Notes: generated by a model not told the origin, from the letters alone. Numbered from the stretch's first letter, positions 5,026-56,933 are shown. The stretch is 60,170 bases of DNA from Nanobdellota archaeon (GCA_018816335.1 JAHIVP010000024.1:1-60170); one strand, 5' to 3'. Made by a program: numbers and translations.

Positions 5026-5839
5026 TAGATCGTTTATATCTTCCTCTTTTTTCAACTGCTTCTAATCTTTCTAGAACTTGTTTAGAATTTTCTGAGTTTT
5101 TATATCCTTTTAGAAACGATTTGAGTAGAGCTTCATAATTTTGAAAGTGTTTTGCTTCTAGAGCTTGTTTTAGTAGATGGATGTCTACTGCTTTGTCTTC
5201 TAATTTATTTGAGATATATCCTAGGCCGAAGTCTATTAAGAATATTTTGAAATTTTCTGTAACCCCATATAAAACCCTCCCTCCCTCCCTTTTAATGGTG
5301 TTACTTTTTTTATTAAGTGAAGAAGGTTTTAATGATAGGTTGTGAGATTTGGTAGATTTAGTATCAATAGGATTATTTACTAGAATCATATTTGATGTTG
5401 TGAGGTCTCCGTGGATTATATCTGAATCGTGGAGTTTAGCAATATCTTGGCCTATTATTTGGGCTATTTTTTCTTGGGTTAATTTTTTTGCAACACTATG
5501 TAAAACCCTCCCGCCCTCCCTTTTAATAGTGTTGCTATTATTTTGAGATAATTTAATTTCTTTTTCAGTTGGATAATCATTGAGATTAGTTGATAGTTTT
5601 TGTCCATCTATAAATTCCATTTTTATTTCTGAAGTATTATTTGTTGAAATTAGGTTTGGAACATTGATTATTTTAGAAGCTTTTTCTAGAATTTTGTATT
5701 CTGATTTTGTTCTTCTTTTTCTTAGTTGGGTGTCTAGTTGAGGGTGTCTATATGATTTTTTTATTCTGTGTTTTAGAATTGTATTATTTGATTTAGAAAT
5801 TATTGCTTCTGCTCCTCTTCCTATTATTTCTTTACTCAT
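5009..5839 (-). CDS. bud32: Bud32/PRPK-type (Kae1-associated) protein kinase carrying two in-frame repeat insertions
   Basis: IGRGAEA N-terminus, catalytic loop HGDLTTSNMIL and LIDFGLG motif. It is 276 aa and encodes the peptide SNTIKREGGRVL twice, each from a PAL-C palindrome. Confidence 0.8.
   Translation of the reverse strand: MSKEIIGRGAEAIISKSNNTILKHRIKKSYRHPQLDTQLRKRRTKSEYKILEKASKIINVPNLISTNNTSEIKMEFIDGQKLSTNLNDYPTEKEIKLSQNNSNTIKREGGRVLHSVAKKLTQEKIAQIIGQDIAKLHDSDIIHGDLTTSNMILVNNPIDTKSTKSHNLSLKPSSLNKKSNTIKREGGRVLYGVTENFKIFLIDFGLGYISNKLEDKAVDIHLLKQALEAKHFQNYEALLKSFLKGYKNSENSKQVLERLEAVEKRGRYKRSTKNQK
5259..5304 (+). repeat. PAL-C palindrome inside Bud32 (copy 1)
   Basis: gtaaccccatataaaa-CCCTCCCTCCCTCCC-ttttaatggtgttac. 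The arms are inverted repeats. The C-tract at 5275-5289 reads GGGAGGGAGGGAGGG on the coding (-) strand. Confidence 0.85.
5490..5535 (+). repeat. PAL-C palindrome inside Bud32 (copy 2)
   Basis: gcaacactatgtaaaa-CCCTCCCGCCCTCCC-ttttaatagtgttgc. The architecture matches copy 1 but the arm sequence differs. Confidence 0.85.
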
Positions 5840-6296
5840 CTTTCATTCTATCAATTATATTTGTAGAAGAGTGATCTGGAATTCTATTGATTATATGAAT
5901 TCGTCCTCCATGCTTTTTGACTGTAGGAGCTTCTATACAATCTTTTCCATATTCTGATCCATTTGCATGAACATGAGGTTTTAATTTTTCTAGAAAGTTT
6001 ATAGGAGTTGTTTCGTTGAATATTAAAACATAATCTACTGGGTCTAGTGATGATAAGATTCTTGCTCTAGTTTCTTGGTCTTTTATTGGACGTGTTGGAC
6101 CTTTGTATTGTTTTATTGATGAATCTGAGTTTAGTCCTACAATTAAAACATCTCCTTGAGCTTTAGCTTGTTCTAAGATGTGTATGTGTCCTTTATGTAA
6201 AATATCAAAACTTCCGTTTATTGTAACAACTGTTTTATTTTCTTTTTTTAGTTTTTCTATAATAGGAATTAATTCTTCTACTGTTTTTATTGGCAT
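5832..6296 (-). CDS. cytidylyltransferase-fold nucleotidyltransferase (RfaE-II / RibL-like)
   Basis: GSFDILHKGHIHIL carries the (H/T)xGH signature. The ~150-aa single-domain size fits. It overlaps the Bud32 start by 8 nt. Confidence 0.65.
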   Translation of the reverse strand: MPIKTVEELIPIIEKLKKENKTVVTINGSFDILHKGHIHILEQAKAQGDVLIVGLNSDSSIKQYKGPTRPIKDQETRARILSSLDPVDYVLIFNETTPINFLEKLKPHVHANGSEYGKDCIEAPTVKKHGGRIHIINRIPDHSSTNIIDRMKDE

Positions 6297-6316
6297 GAGT
6301 ATGATTTGTGATAGAG

Positions 6317-6991
6317 TTATATTTGAATTTTTTCTCCAGGTGCAAATTCTTTTGTTTCTTCTAAACTTATAATTGTTATTGGTTTTAATCCTATTGCTTT
6401 GTAACTATTGTCTTCTTTTAAGAGTGCAGATACTTCTGGAATTGCTATGATGTTCCTATTTGTTTTTTTAATATATTCAATATGCTCTTGGATTTGATCT
6501 TCTTCAAAATGGCATTGGATATCATAATTTTTTATTAGGCTTAATCCTGTTGTGTCTTTTAGTTTTACTTTATTAACATCTGCGTCTTTACAAATTAGAG
6601 CAATGTTTATATCTCTTCCTAAGATTATTGCCCCTGCTGAACCGCCATATATAGTTCCACCAGCATTATAGTAATTGATTAATTTTTTTCCAAAATTACT
6701 GTCTTTGATTAGTTTGAGTAATTTAAAAGTATTTCCTCCGCCAATATAAATTGCATCGTATTTTGTTAATTCAATTTCTTTAGTTAAATCTATAAGCATC
6801 TCAATTTCTATTTCTTTCTTTTTATGCTGGGCCATGAGTTTTGTAAACCATTCTAAACAACTATTGTAATCTCCATTTGGCCATGCAAGAGGGATGTAGA
6901 GGATTGTATTAATATCTTTCATGAATATCTCATCTAGTGAATGAGTTTGTTTTTCATTTCCTCCTCCTGATAGAAATAATCTTCCTTTCAT
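6317..6991 (-). CDS. peptidase S51 (dipeptidase E-like) / class-I glutamine amidotransferase-like
   Basis: LFLSGGGNE..., IYIGGGNTFKLLKLI and GGTIYGGSAGAIILG are typical S51 motifs. Confidence 0.65.
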   Translation of the reverse strand: MKGRLFLSGGGNEKQTHSLDEIFMKDINTILYIPLAWPNGDYNSCLEWFTKLMAQHKKKEIEIEMLIDLTKEIELTKYDAIYIGGGNTFKLLKLIKDSNFGKKLINYYNAGGTIYGGSAGAIILGRDINIALICKDADVNKVKLKDTTGLSLIKNYDIQCHFEEDQIQEHIEYIKKTNRNIIAIPEVSALLKEDNSYKAIGLKPITIISLEETKEFAPGEKIQI

Positions 6992-6992
6992 T

Positions 6993-8366: not shown

Positions 8367-8408
8367 GTTTTAACTAGAATTCTGATGGTTATTAAGTTTT
8401 TGGGTTTT

Positions 8409-8459
8409 TTAACAACCCCATAAAAACCTAAAACCCCCCACCCTTTAAATGGGATTGTT
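8409..8459 (+). repeat. PAL-C palindrome (variant loop aaaaccccccaccct)
   Basis: Arms taacaaccccataaa / tttaaatgggattgtta form an inverted repeat around a C-tract. It lies between the SRP54 start and orphan C. Confidence 0.7.
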
Positions 8460-8466
8460 AAAAGAA

Positions 8467-8480
8467 AAATTATATATATT
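8467..8480 (+). promoter_or_regulatory. TATA-box-like element upstream of orphan C (leaderless-type spacing)
   Basis: aaattatatatatt lies 21-34 nt upstream of the ATG at 8501. The same spacing recurs upstream of several other genes. Confidence 0.35.
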
Positions 8481-8500
8481 ATTATATATTAATCTATAAT

Positions 8501-9915: not shown

Positions 9916-10341
9916 ATGGATAGATTTAATTTGTCAGAATTAGGTTTGTTGCTTAGGTCTGTTGAAGGATTTAGTAGGTTGAGTGAGGAATTATTAAGAG
10001 TTACTCATGTTAGGGGTACTGCACAAAAAGATATTCCTGTTATTCGTGGAGTTTCATTGACTTTGCAGGTTGATGAATCTGGGGGGTTTGGTTTGGAGGA
10101 TACAGAAGTGAGGGGTGGAGCAGAATATAGTTTTGCTGGAAATCCAGCATATATGGAAGCTGCTGAGACTGTTGCCAACCATTTTTCTGTCGGATTTGGA
10201 GGACAAAATAATTGCCAGTATTTTTTATTTAAACCTAAAACTCTTAATGATTTAAGATTAGGTATTCCAAGAGTTGCTGATGCTCAACAATATTTTGGAG
10301 AAAGAATGGAAAAAGAAGCAGCTAGGATTTCTGGAGTTTAG
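9916..10341 (+). CDS. Lys-poor orphan protein D (141 aa)
   Basis: ATG ORF between the divergent FtsY start and apgM. Rich in Gly/Arg/Glu/Val. No family recognised. Confidence 0.6.
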   Translation: MDRFNLSELGLLLRSVEGFSRLSEELLRVTHVRGTAQKDIPVIRGVSLTLQVDESGGFGLEDTEVRGGAEYSFAGNPAYMEAAETVANHFSVGFGGQNNCQYFLFKPKTLNDLRLGIPRVADAQQYFGERMEKEAARISGV

Positions 10342-10346
10342 GGAAG

Positions 10347-10357
10347 TTTTTTATATT
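10347..10357 (+). promoter_or_regulatory. TATA-box-like element upstream of apgM
   Basis: ttttttatatt lies 20-30 nt upstream of the ATG at 10377. Confidence 0.4.
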
Positions 10358-10376
10358 GTAAATTAGTATATATTCT

Positions 10377-11609
10377 ATGAAAGGGGTGTTTGTTTTAATT
10401 GATGGGTTGGGAGATATTCCACATAAAAAGTTGGGATGGCAGACTCCGTTGGAAGCTGCGAATACTCCGAATCTTGATGCTTTAGCTAGGCATAGTCGTC
10501 TTGGTGTTATGTTTTCTGTTAAAGAGAAGTTTATTCCTGGTACAAGTGATGCTGTTGTTTCTATTTTTGGAGAAGATTATGAAAAATATCCTCGGGGGTG
10601 GTTGGAGGCTATGGGTGTTGGGTTAAATATTAAAAAAGGAGATTTAGTTTTTCGAACTAATTTTGGAACTGTTGATGATATGAGGCATAGGAGAGTTATT
10701 GATAGGAGAGCAGGAAGAACATTATCAACAAAAGAAGCTACTAAATTAGCAGATGCGATTAATAAGGAAGTTAAACTTGATTGTAATTTTCTTTTTAAGA
10801 ATACATTACAACATAGAGGGGTTTTAGTTTTCAAAGGAAATTTTTCAGATAAATTAACAGGAAGTGATCCTGAATATAATAAAGGAAGTAATAAGTTTTT
10901 ATTTTCTAGACCTTTGGATAAAAATAAATTATCTAAAAAATCTTCAAAAATATCAAATGATTTTTTAGTTCAGAGTTTTGGAGTTTTGGAAGATCATGTA
11001 GTAAATGAAACAAGAAGAAAGAGAGGATTTTTTCCAGCAAATATTATTTTAAGTAGAGCTCCTGGAATTTATATTAAGAAGCTTAAGAAGTTTAATGATT
11101 GGGCTTGTACAACAGAGGTTCCTGTTATGAAAGGAATTTGTAATAGTTTAGGAATTAATCTTTTTGGTTATAAACATCCAACTTTTAAAGGACATGATGC
11201 GTATTCAAATTTTAATAAGAATTTGAAACTTACAATTAAGAAGTCTATAAAGATGATTAAAAAAAATAAGGATAAGTTTGATTATTTTTTTATTTATCTT
11301 AAAGAGACAGATGCTGCTGGACATGATAATAAGCCTGTTGAGAAAATGAAAATGGTTGAGTTGATTGATAAAAAGTTAATGAAGTTTTTGACAAAATTTG
11401 TTAAGGAAGGGGTTAAGATTGTTGTTACTGCTGATCATTCTACTCCGTGTGATTTAAAGGCTCATTCTTCTGCTCCTGTTCCACTTATGGTATTTGATCC
11501 TTTTGGTAAGAAAGTTGATGAGATGAATTTTTCTGAGAGAAATTGTAAAAAAGGAAGTTTGAATAAAGTTTTAGGAAAGAATTTATTGAAGAAAGTTGGG
11601 TTTAGGTAG
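10377..11609 (+). CDS. apgM: cofactor-independent phosphoglycerate mutase, archaeal ApgM type
   Basis: N-terminal VLIDGLGD, TDAAGHD and C-terminal TADHSTP metal-site motifs of the alkaline-phosphatase superfamily. About 410 aa. Confidence 0.8.
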   Translation: MKGVFVLIDGLGDIPHKKLGWQTPLEAANTPNLDALARHSRLGVMFSVKEKFIPGTSDAVVSIFGEDYEKYPRGWLEAMGVGLNIKKGDLVFRTNFGTVDDMRHRRVIDRRAGRTLSTKEATKLADAINKEVKLDCNFLFKNTLQHRGVLVFKGNFSDKLTGSDPEYNKGSNKFLFSRPLDKNKLSKKSSKISNDFLVQSFGVLEDHVVNETRRKRGFFPANIILSRAPGIYIKKLKKFNDWACTTEVPVMKGICNSLGINLFGYKHPTFKGHDAYSNFNKNLKLTIKKSIKMIKKNKDKFDYFFIYLKETDAAGHDNKPVEKMKMVELIDKKLMKFLTKFVKEGVKIVVTADHSTPCDLKAHSSAPVPLMVFDPFGKKVDEMNFSERNCKKGSLNKVLGKNLLKKVGFR

Positions 11610-12580: not shown

Positions 12581-12683
12581 GCCTCCGTAGCTCAGTGGTA
12601 GAGCAATTGCCTTGTATGTGACTAAGGCTGAAATTAGTCAAAAAGAGAGCAATAGGTCGCAGGTTCAAATCCTGCCGGGGGCT
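12581..12683 (+). tRNA. tRNA-Thr (anticodon TGT) with an intron of ~31 nt after position 37
   Basis: Acceptor GCCTCCG/CGGGGGC, D arm GCTC-AGTGGTA-GAGC, anticodon stem ATTGC...GCAAT. The intron contains the helix GACTAA/TTAGTC. T arm GCAGG-TTCAAAT-CCTGC. Confidence 0.8.
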
Positions 12684-13845: not shown

Positions 13846-13913
13846 GGGTTTTTATCCCACCCTCCACACCCTATTACCAGCAACTTCGTTGCTGGATATA
13901 TTATGAAAAACCC
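13846..13913 (+). repeat. PAL-C variant with an extra inner hairpin
   Basis: Outer arms gggttttt/aaaaaccc, C-tract tcccaccctccacaccct, and an inner hairpin ccagcaa-cttcgt-ttgctgg. It lies upstream of the L44e start. Confidence 0.6.
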
Positions 13914-16953: not shown

Positions 16954-18819
16954 ATGTTTTTTATGATATCTAAAAGAGGACAGGTCGCTATATTCATAAT
17001 TATAGCAATTATTATAGTTGCAGGAGTAATTGTGTATTTTCTTGTAAAAGATAGGACAAGTTATTCTAATATTCCTAGTGAATTTCAGCCTGTTGAAGAT
17101 TATTTTCTAAGTTGTATTGAAGATATAGTAAGAAATGGGAAAGATGTTATGGGGACGCAAGGAGGATATATTGAGCCTCCAAATTTTGACCCGGGTAGTG
17201 ATTTTATGCCTTTTTCATCTCAATTAAATTTTTATGGTTGGCCTGTTCCGTATTGGTATTATAAATCAGGTGTCAATATAATTAAAGAGCAAGTTCCATC
17301 GAAAGATGATATGGAGGAAGAGTTGAATAAATATATTCAAGATAGAGTTGGTGATTGTGATTTTGGAGATTTTGTTGTAGAGGGTTTTATTGTTGAAAGA
17401 GAGGAAGGTGTTAGAGTTCAGACAGATATTGGTGTTAATCAAATTTTTGTTAATTTGAATGCTCCTATTAATGTTAATAGAGGAGAGGAGAGTGTTAGAA
17501 TAGAGGAACATGAAGTTCAGTTAGATACAAAGTTTGGTAAGTTTTATGATTTGGCTGTTGATATTTATGATTATGAGAAAGAGGAAATGTTTTTAGAAAA
17601 TTATGCTGTTGATGTTTTGAGATTGTATGCTCCTGTTGATGGTTTTGAAATTCAGTGTAGTCCGTTGATTTGGGCTTTTAATGAAGTAGTTGATGAGGTT
17701 AAACAAGGGTTGAGTGGAAATATGCAAGCAATTAGATTGACAGGAGATTATTATGATGATTCTCATGATTATTTTGTTCAGGATTTGAGAAGTGATGAGG
17801 CTGTTAGATTTTTGTATGATCCAAGTTGGCCTACTAGAATTGAAGTTTGGCCTTCTGATAGTGGGATTTTAATTGCAGAACCTGTAGGAACTCAAGAAGG
17901 TTTAGGAATTTTAGGATTTTGTTATGTTCCTTATCATTATGTTTATGATTTGAATTATCCTGTTTTAGTTCAAATTTATGATGAAGCAGAATTGTTTCAG
18001 TTTCCTGTTGCTGTTATAATTGATAAGAACAGACCTAGGGAGGCTTTGCCTGCAACAGAAGTTAGAGATGCTACAACTGAATTGTGTAAATATAGAAATT
18101 CTAGAATGGAAGTTTATACTTATGATACTGGATTGAATCCTGTTGAAGCAGATATTAGTTTTAAATGTATTTCTGATAGTTGTTATATTGGAAAGACACA
18201 GATTAGTGGTAGTGATGCTAAGTTATCTGAGAATTTTCCTCAGTGTGTGAATGGACATGTTGTTGCTAAAGCAGAGGGTTATGTAAATAAAAAGCATCAG
18301 GTTTCAACTAATGTTGATGGACAGGTTGTTGATATTGTTTTAGATAAAATATATGATATTGGTCTTAATTTGAAGTTGGATGGGAGAGATTCAGATAGTA
18401 TGGCTGTTATTTATTTTCAATCTGAAGATTATTCTGCAACTGTATCTTGGCCTCAGCAAAGAAGTATAAGTTTAGCTCAAGGAGATTATAATGTAACTGT
18501 TTATGTTTATCAAAATTCTAGTTTGAAATTAGAAGGTTATACAACTGAAAAATGTACTGATGTTCCTAGAGAGGGTTTGTTGGGAATGTTTGGTTTAACA
18601 ACTGAAAAGTGTTTTGATATTTCTGTTCCTGATCAAATAGTTTCAATGAGTTTGTCAGGAGGGGGAAAAACTCAAGAATATATTGTTGATACAAATCTTA
18701 GAGATTATAGTGTTATAGAAATATCTGTAGAGAGTATGCCAAAACCTACAACCCTTGAAGAGCTACAAGATAATTATAATTTGTTTGAATATAAAAGAGT
18801 TTATGTTGAATATAAATAA
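16954..18819 (+). CDS. large extracellular protein with a type IV pilin-like (class III) signal peptide
   Basis: N-terminus MFFMISKRGQ-VAIFIIIAIIIVAGVIVYFLV has KRG(Q) followed by ~20 hydrophobic residues, as in archaeal prepilin-peptidase substrates. The remaining ~590 aa are Cys-containing and acidic. No family recognised. Confidence 0.6.
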   Translation: MFFMISKRGQVAIFIIIAIIIVAGVIVYFLVKDRTSYSNIPSEFQPVEDYFLSCIEDIVRNGKDVMGTQGGYIEPPNFDPGSDFMPFSSQLNFYGWPVPYWYYKSGVNIIKEQVPSKDDMEEELNKYIQDRVGDCDFGDFVVEGFIVEREEGVRVQTDIGVNQIFVNLNAPINVNRGEESVRIEEHEVQLDTKFGKFYDLAVDIYDYEKEEMFLENYAVDVLRLYAPVDGFEIQCSPLIWAFNEVVDEVKQGLSGNMQAIRLTGDYYDDSHDYFVQDLRSDEAVRFLYDPSWPTRIEVWPSDSGILIAEPVGTQEGLGILGFCYVPYHYVYDLNYPVLVQIYDEAELFQFPVAVIIDKNRPREALPATEVRDATTELCKYRNSRMEVYTYDTGLNPVEADISFKCISDSCYIGKTQISGSDAKLSENFPQCVNGHVVAKAEGYVNKKHQVSTNVDGQVVDIVLDKIYDIGLNLKLDGRDSDSMAVIYFQSEDYSATVSWPQQRSISLAQGDYNVTVYVYQNSSLKLEGYTTEKCTDVPREGLLGMFGLTTEKCFDISVPDQIVSMSLSGGGKTQEYIVDTNLRDYSVIEISVESMPKPTTLEELQDNYNLFEYKRVYVEYK

Positions 18820-18820
18820 A

Positions 18821-21800
18821 ATGAAAGATATAAAAATAAATAAGATTGGAATTTTTTTAGTTGGAGCTATGTTTATTTTAACTTTGTGTATGCCTTTTAT
18901 TTTTGCAATTGATAGTTCTTCTACAACAACTTCTACATTTCCTAATAATCCTTCTTCAAGTTCAAGTGTTTCTGGGTTTTCAGGAACTAGTCCTTCATAT
19001 TCTAATTTTCCTGATAATAGTCAGTTTTGGCCGATTTATGGGAATCAAGATACTTGTTATGCTACTCAAGATTTTATTTTGAATATTCCCCTAGGTGGTT
19101 GTAGTCCTGCAATTGTTAGGAGTGATTTATTAGAAGAACAACCTGTTCCTGTTTTTTGTAAAGTTGATGCTTTGAAAATTAATCCTTTTGCTGATATTTC
19201 TATGATTAAGGGTGTGACTTTTTCTGCGAGAAGTTATCCTCCTGAAGTTTCTGGAATTGGGTTTCATCCAATAAGAAGTGCTTTAAGAGTTCAAGATCAG
19301 GTTTTAGATACTCCGTTTTATGGAAGTATTGGTTATTTGGTTGTTACATTAAAAAGAATTCCTGCTGAGAGAGATATGCCTGAGTGGATACAAGTTAATT
19401 TGACTGGAAAGTTAGGGTATGATGTTAGTAGATATGCTGGGCCAGGACAAAATGAATATTATTTGGAATTGTTGACTGAAGATGAATGGAAGCAGAAGTA
19501 TAAAGATAATAATTTATTGAAAGGAAAAGCTTATATTCGAGCTGAGTGGATTGAAAATGATGAAGCTGAGATTGGATTGTATGATGAGAATTTACAGCAA
19601 GTTCAAAAAGTTAAGTTGAAACAAGGACAGACTTCTGATGATATTTATATGCCTGGATTTTATTGTAAAGTTGGTTTGAGAATTACATTGAGTGCTATGA
19701 CTTATGCTGATAGAGAAGCAAAGTTAGAAATTGATAATAATATTCAGTGGGTAAGAGTTGGAACAAGATTTTTAGATGATAGATGTAGGGTTTTGGGAAT
19801 TGATGTTGCTAATAAAAAAGTTAGAATTGAGTGTGCTCCTCCTAGAAAATCTTTTGAATTGAAATTGAAAGGTTCAAGTGGAACTGAGATTAATAATGGA
19901 ATTAATAATATTAATGTTAATGTAGGTGAGGTTGTTAATCCTAGTGAGCAAGATGTTACTAAGAGATATTGGTCTGTTTATTCAGGAAGTGTTCCTAAAA
20001 ATTTAGATGCAACAGAAGAGAAGTTTTTGATATTAGTTAAAAATGTTTCTTCAAGTCATATTGAAAATTTAAGAGTTAAACAATCTACTTTGAGTGCTAT
20101 AACTACTAAAATTGAGAGAATTAGTGCGAAGACTCAACAAGAATATTTGAATAAACTTTTAGAGATAAAAGATGTTTTTGGAAATAATTTTGATGTTAAT
20201 AATATTAAACTTTTAAAAGTAGGTGAGAAGGATTCTGAGTCTGGATTTATTTATAATAAACCAACTTCTGGTCCTGATAAAGATTTTTCAGGTGGAAGTA
20301 ATCCTAATGCTGGTAGAATTTTGAATGAGTATTATAATGAAGCAAAAGCAACAGCTGAGAATTTAGATCAGATGTATGGTGGAGAGGCTTGTGTTGAAGG
20401 AAAATGTGGGGAAGTTGGTTTGAGAGAGTTAGTTCAGTTGTCAGGAGCTATTGGAAAACAATATACTAGAAATCAGATTAATCAGAGATTAGGTGAAGGA
20501 TATAATGTTGGTTTAGCAAATGATAATGTTGATACTAGTGATGCTTCGATTCAATTTGAACTTGATGGGAGATTTCATACTGTTAGATTGTTAGATGTTA
20601 AAGATAGTGCTCAGTCTGGGAATTATGGGGATTTTACAATTGTTGAAGGTGGAACAAGTAAACCAAAGAGGATTGGAATTGGGCAGTATATTGATAATCA
20701 AGCATTGATTAAATTAATTGATTTGAAAGATGATAGAGCTACTTTTGAATATTTTGAAAAAGATCAGAATAGTAATGATATTAGGAAGACTTCTGTTGTT
20801 CAGTTATATTCAACTGTTAATATTTTAGGAAATGTTATAACTTTTAATGATGTTAAGTTGAAGAAGGTTGCTAAGGTTAGTGTGAATACAAATTCTCCTG
20901 CTGGTTTTACAGATACTAATTTTACTTTTAAGATTGCTATTGAGAAAAGAGCAATTGAGTTGTCTCCTAATAAGACAAGTAAGTTGATTGATAAGATTAA
21001 TAAGACAGTTCAAAAGTTGGAAGATATTAGTGAGAAATTAGGAGAGGTTGTTAAGGTTATGAAGTTAGCTTGTTTTGCAACATCTACGATTCTAACTGTT
21101 AAGACATTTTTTGAAAATTTAGGTGGAAGAGGAATGGCTAGACAAAAAGTTATGGGTTATTGGTATGATAATTGTGAGCAAGAGTCTCAGGGAGATAAGA
21201 ATTTATTTAATGCTTGTTTGAAAAATAATAATGCTCAGATTGAAGGAGATATTAATAATTATGCTGGGAATTTGCAGTCTGTTAATAATAATTTACAAAA
21301 TATTCAGAATAATAATTTGAATCCTGCTAATGGAGCTGTTGATGGGTCTAAGGCTTTGGCTGCGTATAAGATTTATATGAATAAATATGTTGGAACTACA
21401 ACATTTACTACTGAGAGTGGGAAGACAGTTTCTGTTACTGCTGATATGATTAATAGTGCTGGAACATTGCAAGAATTAAGAGATTTAGAATTAGCTGCTT
21501 TGAATTCTAAAGCTGGAGCAAGCACTGGAAAAGCAGGGAATAATGAAGGCTATGGTGTTGCAAATAGATTGCAGCAAAGAGTTGCTATTGATAATTCTAA
21601 TCAAAATGCTCAGTCAATATTTGGAAATGGGATTAGTGTTGATTTAGATTATAGTGCTAATGGAACTGTTATTAGAGGTTATCATGGGCAGAGTTGGAAG
21701 AATTTTAGAGATGCTGGATTTTCTATTTCTGGAAATGATGGAACTGTTAAAGATGAGACTCCTGCTCAAGCATTGACTGTTGGAGGTCTTTCTTATATTG

Positions 21801-24800
21801 CTATTTTAGGAAAAAGAATTTCTGGTGTTGGAAGTTATAATGCTGTTTCTTGGTATGAAGTTGGAAGTGGTAAATCATTAACTGCTCCTCTTAGTAGAGA
21901 AGAGGTAGATAGAAGGGGATTGAGTAGTATTCAGTTTGCTCGAAGAGATCCTAGTGCTTTGGTTAATCCGTGGAGAAATCCAACAGTAAGATTTTATGAT
22001 TCTGGGAATTTTAAGGGATTGCCTGCTGTTGTTCCTTTAGGAAGGAGATTAGGAGAACAAGAAGGTTGGTATGTTGCTACTATGCCTTTTAGTATTGAGA
22101 ATAAAAATACAAAGGCTTATACTGATGCTGGACAGATGAGGAATTTTTATATTTGTAATGTTGGAGCAAATGGTTTAGAGGAATTTGAAAGTTCTTTAAG
22201 AGATGATCAGTGTCAGTTTATTAATTTAGATATTAGAAAACCTGATAATGTTTTGGGATTGCCTGTTCAGAAATCTAATGAGTTGGTTGATAAATCTGAG
22301 AAAGCTTTGCGTCAGGCTGCTGAAGGTTTTGCTAATATAAAACCTGGTGAAGATGCTTATATAACTATTTTAGATGGAAGATATAAAGTTGGGAAGCCTG
22401 GAAGAAAGAAGGGAGGAAGGTGTCAGGATTTTATGTCTCCTCAAGATTGTTATATTTTGTTTAATGTTTGTGATCCTGTTATTTGTCCTCCATCAAGATG
22501 TGATATGGGTGGGGCTTATCCTGTAGATGATGTTATTCAGACAGGAATTGTTGGGAGTATTGCTTTATGTTTACCAAATATTAAAGAGGGAATTATGGTT
22601 CCTGTTTGTATTTCTGGTATTCATGCTGGTATAGAAGGTTTGACAAGTATTTTGAGGGCAACTAGAGATTGTATGGTTGAGAGTTTGAAGACAGGACAGA
22701 ATATTGGGATATGTGATGAGATTCAATCAATTTATCTTTGTGAGTTTTTATGGAGACAGTTAACTCCAATTATGAATATGTTGATTCCTGCGATGATTGA
22801 AAGTACTTATGGGCAGGGGACAAGGGGAGGAGGGGAATATTTGACTGTTCAGAATGCATGGCAAAATGTCGAGGGTTCAATTGATTATATGACTAACCAA
22901 TATGCTGTAAATGCTTTTAATGCTTTCAAAGCTCGAAGTACTGATGATGTTGGTGGAGAAATATGTAAGATGTTTATATCAGCAAGATATCCTTCTAATA
23001 AAGATTTTTTTGATGCTTTGCTTGAGCCAGAGAGTCCTCATCAATTTTCTGCTTGGTTCCATGAGATTCCTTATAGTGAGGCAACAACTCCTGCAACTTC
23101 ACAATATAAAGTTTATTATCATATTTATGCTGGAAAAAATAGAGGTGTTTATTATTCTGTTTATTTAAGAGATCCTCCTGAATCAAGTCAGTATAATGTT
23201 CAGCCTATGATTGTGGTTGATACTGGATTTATTGGAGTTGGACAGTATGCTGATCAGGCTAAAGATTTTACAGCTCCTAAAGGATATAAGCAATTGTGTG
23301 TTAGAATAGATAATAAGGAAGAGTGTGGGTTTAAGCAAGTTTCAAGTGATTTTGCTTTGAATATTATTAAAGATACTTATGCTAGTGAGCAAGCGACTCA
23401 GAGGGCGACTTCAACTCAGACTTGTGTTGGTGGGACAGCAAGTATTTATGCGTTTTCTTCTTTAAATATTCAGGAAGGAGCACAAGAAGCTTTGAATCCT
23501 GAAATGGGGAAGAGAGGAATTGTTAGGGTTTGTGCAACTGATAATCCTGGGAAATCTACTAATGCTGCTAGATGGACTGATGTTGGTGTTTGTGATGAAC
23601 CTGATATGAAGTGTTGGCTTGATACAGATTCTGTTAAAAATGCTATCACAGCTAGGAATATAGAGAACCAGACTTTGCAAGCTGCTGGATTTAATGTAAC
23701 TCAATATTTTGATTCAACCGGAGTTTATACTCCTCAATATACAAATAGTATGTTGGTTAATTTGAAAATTAAACTTGCTGAAATTAATTTTAATTCAGCT
23801 TATGGTGAGAGATTAGTTAATGAAGGTGGGACAAGTGCTGCTGGTTATTCAGAAACTGAGTTTGGAAGATTGATTAGAGATATTAAGGACTTACAAGAAA
23901 GAGCTCATAATAATAATTATAAGGCTCGGGCAATGTTGTTAGAGTTCCAGGCATATGAGAGAGCTGTTAGAGCTGTTTATTTGAAATATTTTGGTAAAGA
24001 GCATGATGTTGAACATGCTCCTGTTACTTCTGGGGATTCTGCAACTGAGGGGGTCTATGGGTTGAGATCAGAAGATTTTAATGCTGGAGAGCAGAGAGTT
24101 ATTGCTGGAATAAAAATATATTCTGGAGAAGTGTATACTGGTATTTTTATTGTTAGACATGTAAATGAGGAGATTATATATATTACTGATGGTAATTTGC
24201 CTAGAAGTATTGGGAGAGTTATAAATGGTGTATTGGACATTAATATTAATCAAATTCCTGAAAGTAAAATTAATATTAAAAAATATGCTGCAGCAGTTGA
24301 TAATGCTAGAGTAGATTTAAATGTATTAAGTATTGTCTTGGCTGCTTCGAGTAGTTCAAGTGGTGGAAGTTCGACATCAAGTACATCAACAAGTGGAACA
24401 GGAACTCAAACTCCTGAGAATATAATTAAAAGTTTTAATAGGTATCCTTATTTTGATAGTTATAAAAGATTTCTTGTTAATTTAGGAAACGATGAAAATG
24501 GAAATGTTGTTGGAGTTTATGCTTTGGATTCAAGTAGAAATTTGGTTTGGAGTTCTGATGGAAGTGATTTTACAAGTGTTGAAGCTGATATTGCTAATGG
24601 TGATGCTTGGAAGACTCAGTTGAAAGGAGAGTTACTTGATTTGTTTAATAGACAGTTGACTTTGATTCCTAGTGAGATTTTAGTTGGAGATGAATTAATA
24701 GATAAGAATGGAGTATTTTATGTTGTTGATGTTGCTAGAGAGATTGAGGGAACTGTGGGAAGAGTTTTTTTTATACATAAGTTTGATGATAGTAGTAAAA

Positions 24801-24874
24801 CAATTACTTTTAGGTGGGAAGAAGAAGTTGGAATTGATGAATTGTCTCAGATATATGCTAAGAAGATGAATTGA
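18821..24874 (+). CDS. giant secreted Cys-rich protein (~2017 aa)
   Basis: The ATG at 18821 follows the upstream stop by one nt. Signal peptide MKDIKINKIGIFLVGAMFILTLCMPFIFA, Ser/Thr-rich linkers (SSSTTTS; SSSSSGGSSTSSTSTSGTGT), and a Cys-dense segment CQDFMSPQDCYILFNVCDPVICPPSRCD. The tracked 18755 start is a TTG extension. Confidence 0.7.
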   Translation: MKDIKINKIGIFLVGAMFILTLCMPFIFAIDSSSTTTSTFPNNPSSSSSVSGFSGTSPSYSNFPDNSQFWPIYGNQDTCYATQDFILNIPLGGCSPAIVRSDLLEEQPVPVFCKVDALKINPFADISMIKGVTFSARSYPPEVSGIGFHPIRSALRVQDQVLDTPFYGSIGYLVVTLKRIPAERDMPEWIQVNLTGKLGYDVSRYAGPGQNEYYLELLTEDEWKQKYKDNNLLKGKAYIRAEWIENDEAEIGLYDENLQQVQKVKLKQGQTSDDIYMPGFYCKVGLRITLSAMTYADREAKLEIDNNIQWVRVGTRFLDDRCRVLGIDVANKKVRIECAPPRKSFELKLKGSSGTEINNGINNINVNVGEVVNPSEQDVTKRYWSVYSGSVPKNLDATEEKFLILVKNVSSSHIENLRVKQSTLSAITTKIERISAKTQQEYLNKLLEIKDVFGNNFDVNNIKLLKVGEKDSESGFIYNKPTSGPDKDFSGGSNPNAGRILNEYYNEAKATAENLDQMYGGEACVEGKCGEVGLRELVQLSGAIGKQYTRNQINQRLGEGYNVGLANDNVDTSDASIQFELDGRFHTVRLLDVKDSAQSGNYGDFTIVEGGTSKPKRIGIGQYIDNQALIKLIDLKDDRATFEYFEKDQNSNDIRKTSVVQLYSTVNILGNVITFNDVKLKKVAKVSVNTNSPAGFTDTNFTFKIAIEKRAIELSPNKTSKLIDKINKTVQKLEDISEKLGEVVKVMKLACFATSTILTVKTFFENLGGRGMARQKVMGYWYDNCEQESQGDKNLFNACLKNNNAQIEGDINNYAGNLQSVNNNLQNIQNNNLNPANGAVDGSKALAAYKIYMNKYVGTTTFTTESGKTVSVTADMINSAGTLQELRDLELAALNSKAGASTGKAGNNEGYGVANRLQQRVAIDNSNQNAQSIFGNGISVDLDYSANGTVIRGYHGQSWKNFRDAGFSISGNDGTVKDETPAQALTVGGLSYIAILGKRISGVGSYNAVSWYEVGSGKSLTAPLSREEVDRRGLSSIQFARRDPSALVNPWRNPTVRFYDSGNFKGLPAVVPLGRRLGEQEGWYVATMPFSIENKNTKAYTDAGQMRNFYICNVGANGLEEFESSLRDDQCQFINLDIRKPDNVLGLPVQKSNELVDKSEKALRQAAEGFANIKPGEDAYITILDGRYKVGKPGRKKGGRCQDFMSPQDCYILFNVCDPVICPPSRCDMGGAYPVDDVIQTGIVGSIALCLPNIKEGIMVPVCISGIHAGIEGLTSILRATRDCMVESLKTGQNIGICDEIQSIYLCEFLWRQLTPIMNMLIPAMIESTYGQGTRGGGEYLTVQNAWQNVEGSIDYMTNQYAVNAFNAFKARSTDDVGGEICKMFISARYPSNKDFFDALLEPESPHQFSAWFHEIPYSEATTPATSQYKVYYHIYAGKNRGVYYSVYLRDPPESSQYNVQPMIVVDTGFIGVGQYADQAKDFTAPKGYKQLCVRIDNKEECGFKQVSSDFALNIIKDTYASEQATQRATSTQTCVGGTASIYAFSSLNIQEGAQEALNPEMGKRGIVRVCATDNPGKSTNAARWTDVGVCDEPDMKCWLDTDSVKNAITARNIENQTLQAAGFNVTQYFDSTGVYTPQYTNSMLVNLKIKLAEINFNSAYGERLVNEGGTSAAGYSETEFGRLIRDIKDLQERAHNNNYKARAMLLEFQAYERAVRAVYLKYFGKEHDVEHAPVTSGDSATEGVYGLRSEDFNAGEQRVIAGIKIYSGEVYTGIFIVRHVNEEIIYITDGNLPRSIGRVINGVLDININQIPESKINIKKYAAAVDNARVDLNVLSIVLAASSSSSGGSSTSSTSTSGTGTQTPENIIKSFNRYPYFDSYKRFLVNLGNDENGNVVGVYALDSSRNLVWSSDGSDFTSVEADIANGDAWKTQLKGELLDLFNRQLTLIPSEILVGDELIDKNGVFYVVDVAREIEGTVGRVFFIHKFDDSSKTITFRWEEEVGIDELSQIYAKKMN

Positions 24875-27596: not shown

Positions 27597-27644
27597 TTTT
27601 TCCTACACAATAAACCCTCCCTCCCACCCTTTATTGTAGGAAAA
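27597..27644 (+). repeat. PAL-C palindrome
   Basis: ttttcctacacaataaa-CCCTCCCTCCCACCCT-ttattgtaggaaaa, between the convergent Sm and RNase Z genes. Confidence 0.8.
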
Positions 27645-27693
27645 AATTAACTCTAAAATTATTTTTTAATAGAAAATTTTTATGTACTTAGAA

Positions 27694-28602: not shown

Positions 28603-28611
28603 TTTGTTATT

Positions 28612-28660
28612 TTTACACCATACAAATAACCCTCCCACCCACCCTTATTTATGGTGTAAA
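28612..28660 (+). repeat. PAL-C palindrome
   Basis: tttacaccatacaaataa-CCCTCCCACCCACCCT-tatttatggtgtaaa, immediately upstream of the RNase Z start. The gene-sense strand reads GGGTGGGTGGGAGGG. Confidence 0.8.
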
Positions 28661-28726
28661 ATTTATTTATTATAGTAGTGAAAGTTTGTTTATATAATTT
28701 TGTTTTAGAATTAATTTAAACTAAAT

Positions 28727-30850: not shown

Positions 30851-30960
30851 GATTTTTATCCTAGTAATAACCTAAAAAATTTTATTCCACACAATAAACT
30901 CTCCCACCCACCCTTTATTGTGGAATAAAATAATCCTTGTGTTATTTAGGATAAAAATTA
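30851..30960 (+). repeat. nested PAL-C palindrome upstream of glyS
   Basis: Inner element ttattccacacaataaa-CTCTCCCACCCACCCT-ttattgtggaataaaa. Outer arms gatttttatccta / taggataaaaat. Confidence 0.8.
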
Positions 30961-33518: not shown

Positions 33519-33740
33519 TTATAAAAACTTATTTTTCTTTTTATGATTCCTAGCCATATGGTTAGGCCACACGTTGACTAATTAGTCCATCATTAAGGTT
33601 TATTTTAAGGCATGAAATTCAACTGCGACAATTAGTAGTGATGATCTTTTGAGGGATTGTGAATATTGAAGCAGTGGTGCTCTGTCATATTGACACTAGG
33701 AGGCTCCTTTTTAGGAGAGATTAGTTGGCTACAAAGTTGG

Positions 33741-40351: not shown

Positions 40352-40410
40352 TAATTTTTTAATCCTATATAAAACCCTCCCTCCCTCCCTTTTTTAGGAT
40401 TAAAAAATTA
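40352..40410 (+). repeat. PAL-C palindrome
   Basis: taattttttaatcctatataaaa-CCCTCCCTCCCTCCC-ttttttaggattaaaaaatta, with 15-bp arms, upstream of the S17e start. Confidence 0.85.
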
Positions 40411-41470: not shown

Positions 41471-41524
41471 AATTTTTATCTCATATAAAACCCTCCCACC
41501 CTCCCTTTTAATGAGATAAAAATT
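41471..41524 (+). repeat. PAL-C palindrome
   Basis: aatttttatctcatataaaa-CCCTCCCACCCTCCC-ttttaatgagataaaaatt. Confidence 0.85.
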
Positions 41525-41610
41525 AATTCAATTTATTATTAACAGATAAATGGTGGTGGAGGTTATAAAGATTATTGGGGTGGAGTACTTCTTAATTTAT
41601 ACCAGGTAAT

Positions 41611-41674
41611 AACCCAACTCCCAACCACGCTCGTTGGTCGATTTTCATCGCCTCGCGTAATTGCTCGCCCTCCC
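41611..41674 (-). repeat. GC-rich element GCE-3 (short form)
   Basis: The + strand reads aacccaactcccaaccacgctcgttggtcgattttcatcgcctcgcgtaattgctcgccctccc, which aligns with GCE-1. Confidence 0.75.
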
Positions 41675-41732
41675 ATTCTTATTATGGGATAAATTAAGTA
41701 AACTTTTTAAATCTGAGATGATAGTTTATATT

Positions 41733-41936
41733 ATGATAATACCAGAATATGTTAGGGCTGATGAAATATTAGATAGTCCTCAGAGAACTGATATAGCTTC
41801 GAGAGTTAAAGAACAAATGAGAAGAGACGGGACAATGAAGAGACTTGATGAGTATATACATCGAGAGATGAAAGATTTCTGTGATTTAATGCATCAACCT
41901 GTTTGTGGATGTGATAGTTGCAGTAGGATGAGTTAA
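41733..41936 (+). CDS. Lys-poor orphan protein Q (67 aa)
   Basis: The first ATG is at 41733 (the tracked start 41661 is a TTG inside GCE-3): MIIPEYVRADEILDSPQRTDIASRVKEQMRRDG...CGCDSCSRMS. The stop overlaps the endA stop. Confidence 0.4.
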   Translation: MIIPEYVRADEILDSPQRTDIASRVKEQMRRDGTMKRLDEYIHREMKDFCDLMHQPVCGCDSCSRMS

Positions 41937-42493
41937 GGTTTAGTCCACTTAACTTCATAATAAGTAACATCTCCTTCGTCGTCAACAATAGCGATTAATA
42001 GGTTCTTTTTTGTTGAGTGTGCAACTCTGTTTTTTCCTGAGAATTCGTGCCATGTTAGAGGATCTGATTCGTGAACTGGATAAAGAATCCACTTTGCGTG
42101 ATCTTGTCCTGGTTTAACACCTTTTTCATAAACTCTAAACTCTGCTCCAAATTTTAAAGCTGTTTTTACTAAATATCCTCTTTGTCTCATATCTTTGAAT
42201 ACAATATAATTTGTATTAATTTTTTTATCTATATCTTCTATTTTTTCTTTGAATTTTCTTGCTGAGATTTTCTTTGATTTTTCTTTTATTTCCATTTTCT
42301 TTTTCTCTATTAAATATAGTGCTTCAACTAAAGAGTATTGTATTTTTTCATCTACTGGTTCTCCGAATCTTGATTTTGCATAGAGATTTTTTGCTTCTGT
42401 TGAATTTGAAGTTGCGTTTTTGCCAGAGAAAACTGCGTTTATAATTTTTGATTCTGTTTTTGATTTCTTAGTTGTTTTCTTTTTCATTACCAT
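41933..42493 (-). CDS. endA: tRNA-splicing endonuclease
   Basis: The C-terminal catalytic domain ..ALKFGAEFRVYEKG......HAKWILYPV......VAHSTKK.LLIAIVD carries the Y/H/K triad pattern. Confidence 0.85.
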   Translation of the reverse strand: MVMKKKTTKKSKTESKIINAVFSGKNATSNSTEAKNLYAKSRFGEPVDEKIQYSLVEALYLIEKKKMEIKEKSKKISARKFKEKIEDIDKKINTNYIVFKDMRQRGYLVKTALKFGAEFRVYEKGVKPGQDHAKWILYPVHESDPLTWHEFSGKNRVAHSTKKNLLIAIVDDEGDVTYYEVKWTKP

Positions 42494-51167: not shown

Positions 51168-51204
51168 TTTTCTTATTTTTTAACAACACTATAATAAAAC
51201 CCAA

Positions 51205-51290
51205 AATTTTACTCCACACAATATCCCCCCACCCACCCGTTATTGTGGAATAAAATAAACTCCTCCACCATTTTAATGAGGTAAAAATTA
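51205..51290 (+). repeat. composite PAL-C palindromes upstream of alaS
   Basis: ctccacacaata-TCCCCCCACCCACCCG-ttattgtggaataaaataa has the same right arm as the copy at 30917-30935. A second C-tract ctcctccacca with an ttttaatgagg arm follows. Confidence 0.75.
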
Positions 51291-51324
51291 ATTCTTTGAT
51301 ATTTATGTTTAGAATAAGGGATAT

Positions 51325-53178: not shown

Positions 53179-53208
53179 TTATTTAAACATTAGGTATTTA
53201 ATTATTCT

Positions 53209-53913: not shown

Positions 53914-53924
53914 GTTAATAAAAG

Positions 53925-54494: not shown

Positions 54495-54550
54495 GTGGGA
54501 TGGGGGTTGGAGTTTTACTATTTAATCTTGATGAAAATTTATGGGGAAAG

Positions 54551-54560
54551 TTTTTATATT
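54551..54560 (+). promoter_or_regulatory. TATA-box-like element upstream of orphan O
   Basis: tttttatatt lies 20-29 nt upstream of the ATG at 54580. Confidence 0.4.
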
Positions 54561-54579
54561 TTATATTCTTTAGTTAAGA

Positions 54580-55584: not shown

Positions 55585-56828
55585 AAAAACTGAGTTAACC
55601 TAGATTGTTTACCAAATTCTTTTAATAAACTACTTTGAGATGTGAATAAATTTATAGGAAGTTTTAATTTTTTTTGTGCGGTTTGTAATGTTTCATTTAG
55701 TGTTGAAAATTTTTCTGGTTTTTTTGTGAAAGCATGGCGAGTTGCTTCTCTTAAGATTCCTATTCCGCAAGGAGCATAGTATTCTGGACGACATTCACGG
55801 AGAACTAAACATGATGCTTGTCTTTTTATCTTGATTAGAAATTCTGTGAGTGCTAATCTGTTGGCATAGTAAGCTCCTGTTACATTATCTGCGTATTTTT
55901 TTCTTCCTCTAAATGATTCATAATCTTTTGAAATATATATTTTTGAATTTGTATCTGGGTTCCATAAAGTTCCTGGAATTTCAGCTTCCATAACTTCAAA
56001 TGAGAATTTATCTGGGAGTAGAATTATTTCATAATGGTTCCCGAGATAGTAAGAAGTGAATAAATAGAATTCTGATATTTCTGAGAAGTATTTAATCTTG
56101 CTTAGTAGCTGTTTTGATAGTGTGTCATCTGTTGCTGTGATTGCCCATCTTGTTGGAACTAATTTTCTGTTTTTTGCTATTCCTAAAAGGCCTGCTGATA
56201 GAATTTTTATTATGTTTGAGGTTGGTATTTTTGATTTGTATAATTCTTTCATTGCTGTTACTGATTTTACATCGTAATCATTTGTTAAGTAGTCAACTTT
56301 TTTATGGACTTTTGGATTTTCTTGAAGGCGGGCTTTTAGGAGGGGGGCAGGGTTTCCTATGATTGGCATTTCGCTTGTTAGGTATATATTTTGATTTGGA
56401 AGTTTTTTTAGAAATATTTCTGTGTCTACTGGTTTGTATGCCATTGAAATTTCTTGCATTATTTGAAGTGGTCTTGGTATTTTTGAATTTAGTTTTGGTA
56501 AATTATTTCTTACTGATTTGATTGAGCTTTTGAATCTTCCATAAATTAATTTTCCTCTTGAGTTTAATATTTGTTCAATTGAAAATTTGTTTGAATGCCA
56601 TTGTTCTGGCATGCTTAGGGTTTCAGCTTCATCTGTGTGTTCTTGAGGAGCTAAGATTCCTGTGTTTACTTGAGGATAGTTGAATCTTCCTACAAATATT
56701 TCTGGAGGAGAGTTTCCTGAGAAATGAAGTTTTGGTTTTGGCATTGATGCTTTAAACTTGTTTATTATTGGACATGGTTTTCCACATAATCCTTTTCCTT
56801 TACACTTGATGCAGAGGTCTATGTTCAT
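55581..56828 (-). CDS. Nre-family (archaeal DNA-repair-associated) protein
   Basis: The N-terminal Cys cluster MNIDLCIKCKGKGLCGKPCP and ~415-aa length match my memory of archaeal NreA/NreB-type proteins. Confidence 0.55.
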   Translation of the reverse strand: MNIDLCIKCKGKGLCGKPCPIINKFKASMPKPKLHFSGNSPPEIFVGRFNYPQVNTGILAPQEHTDEAETLSMPEQWHSNKFSIEQILNSRGKLIYGRFKSSIKSVRNNLPKLNSKIPRPLQIMQEISMAYKPVDTEIFLKKLPNQNIYLTSEMPIIGNPAPLLKARLQENPKVHKKVDYLTNDYDVKSVTAMKELYKSKIPTSNIIKILSAGLLGIAKNRKLVPTRWAITATDDTLSKQLLSKIKYFSEISEFYLFTSYYLGNHYEIILLPDKFSFEVMEAEIPGTLWNPDTNSKIYISKDYESFRGRKKYADNVTGAYYANRLALTEFLIKIKRQASCLVLRECRPEYYAPCGIGILREATRHAFTKKPEKFSTLNETLQTAQKKLKLPINLFTSQSSLLKEFGKQSRLTQFF

Positions 56829-56871
56829 TTTTCTTTTTTTGAAATTTGTGCTTTATTATTAACTCTCTCCC

Positions 56872-56933
56872 AAAATTTTAATACCTTACACAATACCCCT
56901 CCCTCCCTCCCTATTAAATAAAGTATTAAAATT
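56872..56933 (+). repeat. PAL-C palindrome
   Basis: aaattttaatac...-CCCCTCCCTCCCTCCCT-...gtattaaaattt with 12-bp outer arms, upstream of the Nre-like gene start. Confidence 0.8.

Follow-up and report, generated by a model that had tools for sequence, protein, structure and literature searches.

PAL-C, a one-orientation palindromic repeat family with a quadruplex-motif loop in DPANN archaea: a candidate mobile element

The stretch of DNA analysed here (the window; 60,170 nucleotides from a Nanobdellota archaeon, GCA_018816335.1 JAHIVP010000024.1:1-60170) contains a family of dispersed palindromic repeats, termed PAL-C, in which an AT-rich stem closes a loop of C-tracts and in which the C-rich loop lies on the same strand in every copy. 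The family behaves in a way that fits selfish insertional DNA which has spread through a subset of DPANN genomes, in Pacearchaeota and Woesearchaeota, and it is interpreted in this way because the copies form a paralogous family, because their distribution is patchy and subject to turnover, and because nested copies and in-frame insertions in coding sequence occur. The chances are about even that PAL-C is, more specifically, a mobile palindromic element like the repetitive extragenic palindromic (REP) sequences and the Rickettsia palindromic elements (RPEs), mobilised or retained replication-strand-specifically as a single-stranded hairpin. The single-strand mechanism and the responsible enzyme are inferred by analogy with known systems. 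No description of PAL-C was found in a literature search.

The window belongs to a metagenome contig of 124 kb (ENA ERZ27247128 k141_799519, in which a record coordinate is the window coordinate plus 12,950), and flanks from the same contig were used to widen the analysed stretch to 78.7 kb. The archaeon has a G+C content of 31.5%, and the window proteins match Pacearchaeota/Nanoarchaeota (DPANN) sequences. It is present in groundwater metagenomes (JGI 3300014656 and 3300014613, SRR6514274, ERZ27247128 and ERZ27247121). An assembly artefact is an unlikely origin for the palindromes, because an independent assembly (Logan SRR6514274, locus L002) matches at 100% identity across a stretch of 4,625 bp in which two PAL-C copies lie.

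The short form of PAL-C is approximately 50 bp long and, according to single-strand folding, consists of an AT-rich stem of approximately 19 bp that closes the 15-nt loop CCCNCCCNCCCNCCC. The loop is made up of exactly four C3 tracts with single-base spacers, and the opposite strand reads G3N1G3N1G3N1G3. The exact loop occurs seven times in the window, always on the + strand, compared to no occurrence in 100 dinucleotide-preserving shuffles, which confirms both that the repeat family is real and that its members share the design described in the original prediction, made from the sequence of the window. The four-tract G-quadruplex (G4) motif which that prediction had placed on the other strand agrees with the sequence definition of such a motif (four runs of at least 3 G with loops of 1-7 nt). 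The pattern G3N1G3N1G3N1G3 is present on the - strand in 7 of the 10 canonical window copies, and four tracts of at least C3, or equivalent C7 runs, are present in 27 of the 35 copies of a wider set, part of which was found through the four-tract pattern. Across copies the C3 tracts are kept and the spacers vary (T, A, G, C or AA), a pattern that, judged from sequence, fits a structural constraint on the loop. Folding with G4 energies predicts that the G strand adopts the same stem, capped by a three-tetrad quadruplex, and the loop may form a G4 or, on the C strand, an i-motif. Neither the short nor the long form of the element has a match in Rfam at gathering score, and a relaxed search gave only a chance-level result (E = 0.44).

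Copy-specific complementarity was measured by direct scoring of the stems, with cross-copy pairings as the control, since a MAFFT alignment, in which indels shift the arms out of register, yielded no structure on consensus folding. The stems total 476 Watson-Crick pairs with 26 mismatches, and the median stem score is 12 within a copy versus 4 for cross-copy pairings, 0.4% of which reach 12. The variable, compensating arms of the original prediction are thus upheld as far as copy-specific pairing is concerned, but the arms are less free than had been supposed, as they obey the family consensus AATTTTTAYYYCAYAWAAA. In 104 of 110 C:G pairs, moreover, the C stands in the 5' arm and the G in the 3' arm. 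Because the arms share a consensus and the C:G pairs share one polarity, the copies are, on the evidence of their sequences, clearly paralogs of one family with sub-families, differing mainly by compensated transitions. Copy-paste is therefore involved in their origin, contrary to the earlier claim that the hairpins arose by selection or some generating mechanism rather than plain copy-paste. Stem mismatches were also classified by type (C.A versus T.G) in order to identify the strand that folds, and are too few for a decision. The palindrome ends read AATTTTTA.../...TAAAAATT. The element has a single open frame on its G-rich strand (..IKREGGRVL..), and direct reading of the C-rich strand of a typical copy gives stops in all three frames.

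The orientation of the family was evaluated using a profile built from the 35 copies, which was run against both strands of the 78.7 kb. All 12 hits at E <= 1.4e-4 are on the + strand, and the - strand is empty even at E = 10. The original prediction had claimed one strand orientation whatever the direction of the flanking genes, and had named a genome-wide census with both orientations equally represented and random placement as the outcome that would remove this argument; the search of the 78.7 kb bears out the claim. Orientation is uniform in each multi-copy contig (12, 5, 3, 3 and 2 copies), and no reverse-oriented copy, intact or decaying, was found among approximately 50 copies. With E denoting the element and arrowheads the direction of the flanking genes, the contexts of the copies are <E> in 9 cases, <E< in 8, >E> in 7 and >E< in 2.

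The polarity of PAL-C coincides with a pronounced compositional asymmetry between the strands. In the window and 23 other carrier loci (24 in total, 21 of them independent), the C-loop is on the G-rich strand irrespective of gene direction. When these loci are turned so that the C-loop is on the + strand, the overall GC skew read on that strand is +0.46 for + genes and +0.03 for - genes, and the GC skew at third codon positions is +0.79 for co-oriented and +0.41 for opposite genes; third positions on the + strand are also T-rich for both gene groups. Seven syntenic loci from non-carriers, which were obtained via Bud32 homologs and thus chosen without reference to the motif, are nearly symmetric, with a coding-strand-only skew (two-group mean -0.21 to +0.05). 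Extreme gene-independent asymmetry and PAL-C co-occur. Skew of the magnitude found in the carriers is unusual for archaea, and the extreme GC and AT skew found together with PAL-C suggests that replication or repair follows an unusual regime in the lineages concerned. By analogy with bacteria, with archaea whose origins have been mapped and with mitochondria, the asymmetry would mark the replication strands, the G/T-rich strand being the lagging-strand template. Mutational decay was rejected as the cause of the polarity, since the strand that bears the C-loop is the one depleted in C. The possibility that the copies are sole priming sites like the mitochondrial light-strand origin (OriL) was also rejected, because it predicts a saw-tooth in skew between successive copies, and third-position G/(G+C) and T/(T+A) are flat across the inter-copy intervals (rho ~0).

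A scan of a genome collection containing one genome per prokaryotic species, with the query AACCCTCCCNCCCNCCCTT, gave 48 matches, of which 11 are in AT-rich DPANN assemblies and 37 are bacterial. The hairpin design, with different arms, is present in all 11 of the DPANN matches versus none of the 37 bacterial matches. The carrier assemblies are the Pacearchaeota ARS1180, ARS103 and ARS1285, one Woesearchaeota metagenome-assembled genome and two unclassified archaea, and a metagenome scan yielded 12 more AT-rich hairpin-bearing loci amid many chance C-rich matches. A virus or plasmid origin was rejected, both matches in the viral collection being without the hairpin. In the comparison with relatives that had been suggested with the original prediction, copies are absent or present at orthologous sites, and their positions are not conserved. 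PAL-C is absent from all 7 of the syntenic Pacearchaeota loci examined; one relative (L157) has a copy after the SpoIIM gene where the window has none; and another (L030), which is itself a carrier, has neither of the window copies that flank the RNase Z gene. Non-orthologous copies are 81-91% identical across species, compared to 67-80% for flanking genes. The distribution of the family is patchy, and copies come and go at orthologous sites.

Of 37 surveyed copies, 7 lie within open reading frames (ORFs), and the 12 short copies of the 78.7 kb are mostly in spacers. Both copies in the window's Bud32 gene (5259 and 5490) translate as NTIKREGGRVL(Y/H). The first is within a 40-residue insertion between HGDLTTSNM and LIDFG, in the segment from the catalytic loop to DFG, where solved TP53RK/Bud32 structures and minimal homologs have approximately 3 residues. 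The second is within a 28-residue insertion that is missing from the 20 other homologs displayed of a 43-sequence alignment. A nucleotide alignment places this second copy also in L118 (approximately 80% identical, protein P0002), where it differs at two loop spacers only; one spacer change is non-synonymous, and synonymous sites within the G-tracts are unchanged. In other carriers, PAL-C stands in frame in MGMT, where 20 residues replace 3 immediately before PCHRV, in a family-B DNA polymerase (PolB) and in an ERCC4 nuclease domain. The insertions in Bud32, PolB, ERCC4 nuclease and MGMT all use the single open frame of the G strand, and a deoxyhypusine synthase has a C-terminal tail that consists of a copy read in the opposite sense. 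Essential proteins of reduced archaeal genomes are in this manner remodelled by repeat insertion in a Rickettsia-like fashion.

Several further observations concern insertions in these genes. The L106 PolB ORF (862 aa) has an insertion of approximately 94 residues (residues ~129-222) with PAL-C inside it, located, relative to Pfu-type polymerases, at the junction of the N-terminal and exonuclease domains. In the Bud32 of many Pacearchaeota, the loop from HGDLTTSNM to DFG is hypervariable and a hot spot of insertion, with 0 to ~80 extra residues that are often Gly/Arg-rich. In the PAL-C-negative loci L181, L185 and L186 (locus positions 10,200-10,550), this loop contains GGGGCGGGAGGGCGGG-type motifs on the sense strand, which may be relics of old insertions. 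LAGLIDADG inteins are present in RadA (this contig, L003 1-326), in SRP54 (L182, L184) and in an MJ0043_C-family protein (L182), so that several kinds of selfish insertion occur in core genes of these small genomes.

If PAL-C is a mobile element of this type, new copies would be made by copying existing hairpin-competent copies, which would account for the existence of sub-families with compensating arm changes, and the hairpin would be maintained through selection on transposition-competent source copies. Copies would persist where they are tolerated, that is, in short spacers beside promoters and stop codons, and within genes when the open frame of the G strand is in register at a surface loop. 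Because the polarity is strict, insertion or retention would have to be strand-specific relative to replication. The C-loop hairpin is always on the G/T-rich strand, which by analogy would be the lagging-strand template and hence the strand most exposed as single-stranded DNA. The most economical route would be for the element to move at the fork as a single-stranded hairpin, in the manner of IS200/IS605 and REP/RAYT (REP-associated tyrosine transposase) systems, with the loop as the putative recognition or structure-forming part. Precedents exist for the two halves of this scheme: single-stranded hairpins are substrates of Y1 HUH transposases, which also act on the lagging-strand template (PMC6006769, PMC5027513), and RPEs insert in frame into genes (PMC10969869).

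A number of points weigh against this interpretation. A crude regular-expression search of 406 kb of AT-rich loci from partial genomes found no ORF with HUH and Y motifs, the precomputed Pfam lists of the window and flanks (a partial genome) contain no PF01797, and RAYT-type REP systems have so far been found only in bacteria (PMC6006769). All copies differ from one another, which leaves no trace of a recent burst, and neither a target-site duplication nor a clean empty/filled junction could be defined, as the ends are AT-rich and the relatives too diverged. In known Y1 systems, recognition involves the stem together with a flanking tetranucleotide and not the loop; in PAL-C it is the loop, not the foot of the stem, that is conserved. 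The C3 tracts persist on a strongly C-depleted strand, and the copy shared with L118 has changed in its spacers only. As read from sequence, this persistence suggests that individual copies are under selection, something not needed in a purely selfish model, and because the tracts persist against a C-depleting bias there is room for a function at the level of the host. Finally, the analysed sequence has no origin, skew switch or orc1/cdc6 gene by which the direction of replication could be observed.

A host function of this kind could take the form of a polar signal, dispersed along the chromosome and orientation-specific, that is read in its single-stranded or quadruplex state by replication, repair or segregation machinery; its analogues would be Chi, the FtsK-orienting polar sequences (KOPS), the single-strand origins of rolling-circle plasmids and mitochondrial OriL. 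Such a role is unlikely. In its favour, the polarity is complete at approximately one copy per 5-6.5 kb, the loop is conserved across distant DPANN lineages in which the stems vary, the C3 tracts are kept against mutational bias while their spacers are free, the extreme gene-independent skew is found in carriers and not in non-carrier relatives, and the strand that would stay single-stranded for the longest time bears a hairpin with a pyrimidine loop, as is the case for OriL and single-strand origin elements. The flat third-position skew is nevertheless at odds with sole priming sites, the spacing of copies is irregular (0.2-13.8 kb), orthologous sites are not conserved, close syntenic relatives evidently manage without the family, and copies in essential coding sequences look like tolerated accidents. 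A signal of this kind may itself be linked to the extreme strand asymmetry of the carriers, and the element may have spread by transposition before being co-opted. The more far-reaching proposal of a chromosome-wide polar signal of certain DPANN archaea, which would present a C-loop hairpin on the lagging-strand template and a very stable G4 on the leading-strand template, would be read by replication, repair or recombination machinery and would be tied mechanistically to the exceptionally strong, mitochondrion-like asymmetry that only carriers show, must likewise be regarded as doubtful.

Polarity might alternatively be generated after insertion rather than by it, if the element inserts both ways and copies with the G4/C-rich sequence on the wrong template strand stall forks or break and are purged. 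This explanation is improbable. It accounts for the completeness of the polarity, and it draws on reports that G3N1 quadruplexes are the most stable and genetically unstable class, depleted in genomes (PMC6614823), and that G4 and i-motif sequences stall replisomes strand-dependently (PMC10646557). A filter of this type would, however, be expected to leave some reverse or decaying copies, of which there are none among the approximately 50; in the surviving orientation the inferred leading-strand template carries the G4 motif, an arrangement that is the problematic one for eukaryotic-type systems; and mutational decay alone would favour the opposite orientation, as C is lost from the + strand. 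Least probable of all, and to be given very little weight, is a role in transcription or translation, with the copies serving as promoter-proximal G4s 5' of - strand genes, as bidirectional terminators or as insulators. The placement of copies just upstream of the starts of - strand genes was part of the original prediction, and several copies are indeed found there, but those at 5259 and 5490 are inside the Bud32 gene rather than 5' of one. A - gene start is on the left of 20 of 30 intergenic copies compared to 43% of spacers, a modest excess, divergent spacers are enriched and convergent ones depleted, and in three cases the AT-rich 3' arm is 24-31 nt before the ATG, which is the place of a TATA box in a leaderless gene. 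The orientation of the copies is, on the other hand, independent of gene direction, with all four spacer types and intragenic copies represented, the T-run precedes the hairpin instead of following it, and the same promoters occur in relatives without copies. The spacers are, moreover, so short that any tolerated insertion is approximately 50 nt or less from a start or stop codon. Action through the 5' regions of - strand genes, as the original prediction had envisaged, is not supported, given the occurrence of copies in every intergenic context and in coding sequence and the lack of conservation at orthologous promoters. An intrinsic terminator or a known RNA family was rejected because the orientation ignores gene direction and Rfam contains no match at gathering score.

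The features that make the family surprising are the exact quadruplex-motif loop, the complete polarity, the extreme skew of the DPANN hosts and the in-frame insertion in core replication and repair genes. With approximately 50 copies in one orientation, PAL-C offers a natural system for the study of how very stable G4/i-motif sequences coexist with replication, and it could serve as a marker of replication direction in uncultured archaea.

The members of the family are collected in Table 1. In total the window contains 10 canonical copies, one variant, one truncated remnant and three long forms, all with the C-rich loop on the + strand, and two further canonical copies are located just upstream of it on the same contig. 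Copies are irregularly spaced, from 0.2 to 13.8 kb apart, and the density of approximately 1 per 5-6.5 kb extrapolates to ~150-200 copies per Mb-scale genome. Among the 12 spans listed in the original prediction, 10 are canonical copies, 13846-13913 is the variant, and 59528-59656 contains no member; the prediction captured the canonical copies but missed the in-frame coding insertions, the link to strand asymmetry, the long forms, the remnant and the nesting.

Table 1. PAL-C copies and the Bud32 host gene in the window (positions in window coordinates)
Feature	Position	Strand	Context and remarks
PAL-C long form	807-911	+	C-tracts CCCAACTCCCGACCCC ... CGCCCACCC split by conserved ~50-nt insert; outer arms degenerate
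Host gene Bud32/TP53RK, KEOPS kinase, 276 aa	5009-5839	-	holds two in-frame PAL-C copies
PAL-C short copy	5259-5304	+	within Bud32 gene, read in frame as NTIKREGGRVLYGV; profile hit
PAL-C short copy	5490-5535	+	within Bud32 gene, read in frame as NTIKREGGRVLHSV; profile hit
PAL-C short copy, loop partly decayed CCTAAAACCCCCCACCC	8407-8463	+	profile E = 1.4e-4; upstream of SRP54 (- gene), start 41 nt away
PAL-C variant	13846-13913	+	palindrome GGGTTTTTAT...ATGAAAAACCC, C-tracts CCCACCCTCCACACCC, mini-hairpin CCAGCAAC-TTCG-TTGCTGG; z = -5.1
PAL-C short copy	27597-27645	+	between convergent LSm and RNase Z genes; orthologous L030 spacer without copy
PAL-C short copy	28611-28661	+	8 nt upstream of probable RNase Z ATG (- gene); orthologous L030 site without copy
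PAL-C short copy, loop CTCTCCCACCCACCC	30879-30931	+	nested in loop of outer PAL-C-like palindrome 30851-30960
PAL-C short copy	40352-40410	+	between 343-aa and S17e genes (both -); identical in L002
PAL-C short copy	41471-41524	+	12 nt upstream of ATG of 343-aa gene (-); identical in L002
PAL-C long form	41591-41698	+	outer arms intact CTTAATTTATACC...GGGATAAATTAAG; z = -2.7
PAL-C short copy, loop CCCCCCACCCACCC	51206-51256	+	39 nt upstream of AlaRS start codon (- gene)
5'-truncated decayed remnant CTCCTCCACC-ATTTTAATGAGGTAAAAATTAATT	51257-51295	+	weak profile hit; sequence resemblance only
PAL-C short copy	56873-56934	+	divergent spacer, Nre gene (-) / CYTH gene (+)
PAL-C long form	57586-57728	+	additional internal insertion

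The long form is approximately 105 bp in length, and its internal segment of approximately 50 nt (ACTCGTTGGTCGTTTTTTATCGCC..CGTGAAATCGCTCG), which contains two small hairpins and is 76-84% identical between species, is also present in L106, L108 and L118. Nested and interrupted copies both occur, the former as 30879-30931 in 30851-30960 and the latter as the long forms. The extra mini-hairpin of the variant is GC, and at the orthologous position L111 has a canonical copy. A short motif, TTTTGGGTTTT / AAAACCCAAAA, which may be a chance recurrence, is located directly beside several copies (8398-8408, 13850-13858, 13903-13911 and 51196-51205). The span 59528-59656 was rejected as a PAL-C copy and is a 129-bp element resembling a miniature inverted-repeat transposable element (MITE), whose terminal inverted repeats are 14 bp long (GGTTCTGTTGAAAA, with GGCTCTGTTGAAAA on the other strand). 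At a distance of ~600 bp lies an rve-family (DDE) transposase gene (58077-58925) that is also found on several short contigs of other assemblies.

Other features of the analysed sequence include a full-length match (91 bits) at 33549-33737 (+) to the Rfam RT-16 RNA, a motif described beside reverse-transcriptase genes (RF03019). The match directly follows a 272-aa ORF at 32700-33518 that is without a Pfam match, and the vicinity shows no reverse transcriptase. Three 272-aa ORFs were considered as a repeated transposase and rejected, as their proteins are unrelated. A 103-nt tRNA match at 12581-12683 (+), which is reported by Rfam and not by ARAGORN, is probably an intron-containing tRNA, and a tRNA-splicing endonuclease gene is present at 41933-42493. 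Two very large ORFs, of 2039 and 2024 aa, are located at 18755-24874 (+) and in the upstream flank (L003 829-6903), the latter with no precomputed Pfam match.

Several known systems share properties with PAL-C. The single-strand origins, the origin of phage G4 and mitochondrial OriL are orientation-specific hairpins that act only on a displaced single strand, and the genome that contains OriL is very strongly skewed between its strands. These initiation hairpins share with PAL-C an orientation specificity, a conserved loop and variable stems, but they occur once or a few times per replicon, whereas PAL-C is dispersed; its hairpin is on the strand predicted for elements of this type, and the skew shows no gradient between copies. 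Short-loop G4 motifs share the G3N1 pattern, the conserved tracts and the free spacers, but in PAL-C the motif coincides in every case exactly with the loop of a long AT-rich inverted repeat, and it is part of a repeat family. Classical DDE MITEs differ in that PAL-C is one whole palindrome with no evident flanking direct repeats, and the only insertion sequence in the window (rve, 58077-58925) has ends GGYTCTGTTGAAAA that are unrelated to PAL-C.

The IS200/IS605 family, which is present in archaea, and the palindrome-associated transposable elements (PATEs) resemble PAL-C in that their substrates are single-strand hairpins and their insertion and excision at the lagging-strand template produce an orientation bias (PMC5027513, PMC6006769). 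IS200/IS605 elements differ in having two distinct subterminal hairpins, a 4-5 nt target, and tnpA and/or tnpB, whereas PAL-C has a single hairpin and no identified parent. With regard to PATE features, PAL-C has the polarity, one hairpin in the short form, and extra internal mini-hairpins in the long form. REPs and REPINs (REP doublets) are high-copy imperfect palindromes of 20-50 bp that are mostly extragenic and fall into sub-families, and the mobility proposed for them is that of a single-stranded hairpin handled by a Y1 HUH enzyme, which has one gene per genome (PMC6006769). The RAYT gene is usually flanked by REPs. PAL-C is likewise a short, imperfect, mainly extragenic palindrome present in high copy (12 short copies in 78.7 kb). 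REPs, however, often form inverted doublets without strand polarity, whereas in PAL-C the conserved part is the loop, and the GTAG or CGTC tetranucleotide that REPs carry at the foot of the stem (PMC3733652) is present in 0 of the 35 listed PAL-C copies. PAL-C is not assigned to the REPs, because this tag, a RAYT gene, the doublet habit and a sequence relation are all missing from what was examined.

The RPEs share with PAL-C the occurrence of short palindromic repeats both in spacers and in frame in unrelated conserved genes, where the insertions occupy tolerated loops (PMC10969869). Both families are confined to the reduced genomes of host-dependent microbes, and they differ in that RPEs are ~100-150 bp long, bacterial and unrelated in sequence, whereas PAL-C is ~50 bp long, archaeal and read in one frame of one strand. 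RPEs are not known to have a quadruplex-motif loop or to be strictly polar with respect to replication. The in-frame insertion in unrelated genes that characterises RPEs is found in PAL-C as well, as a behavioural match for which no sequence homology is claimed. If the proposed interpretation is true, PAL-C is, as far as the literature search extends, the first REP/RPE-like palindromic family in DPANN archaea, and the first palindromic family in which a quadruplex-motif loop is the conserved part and the orientation is locked to strand asymmetry. PAL-C resembles both REPs and RPEs in its way of working and belongs to neither.

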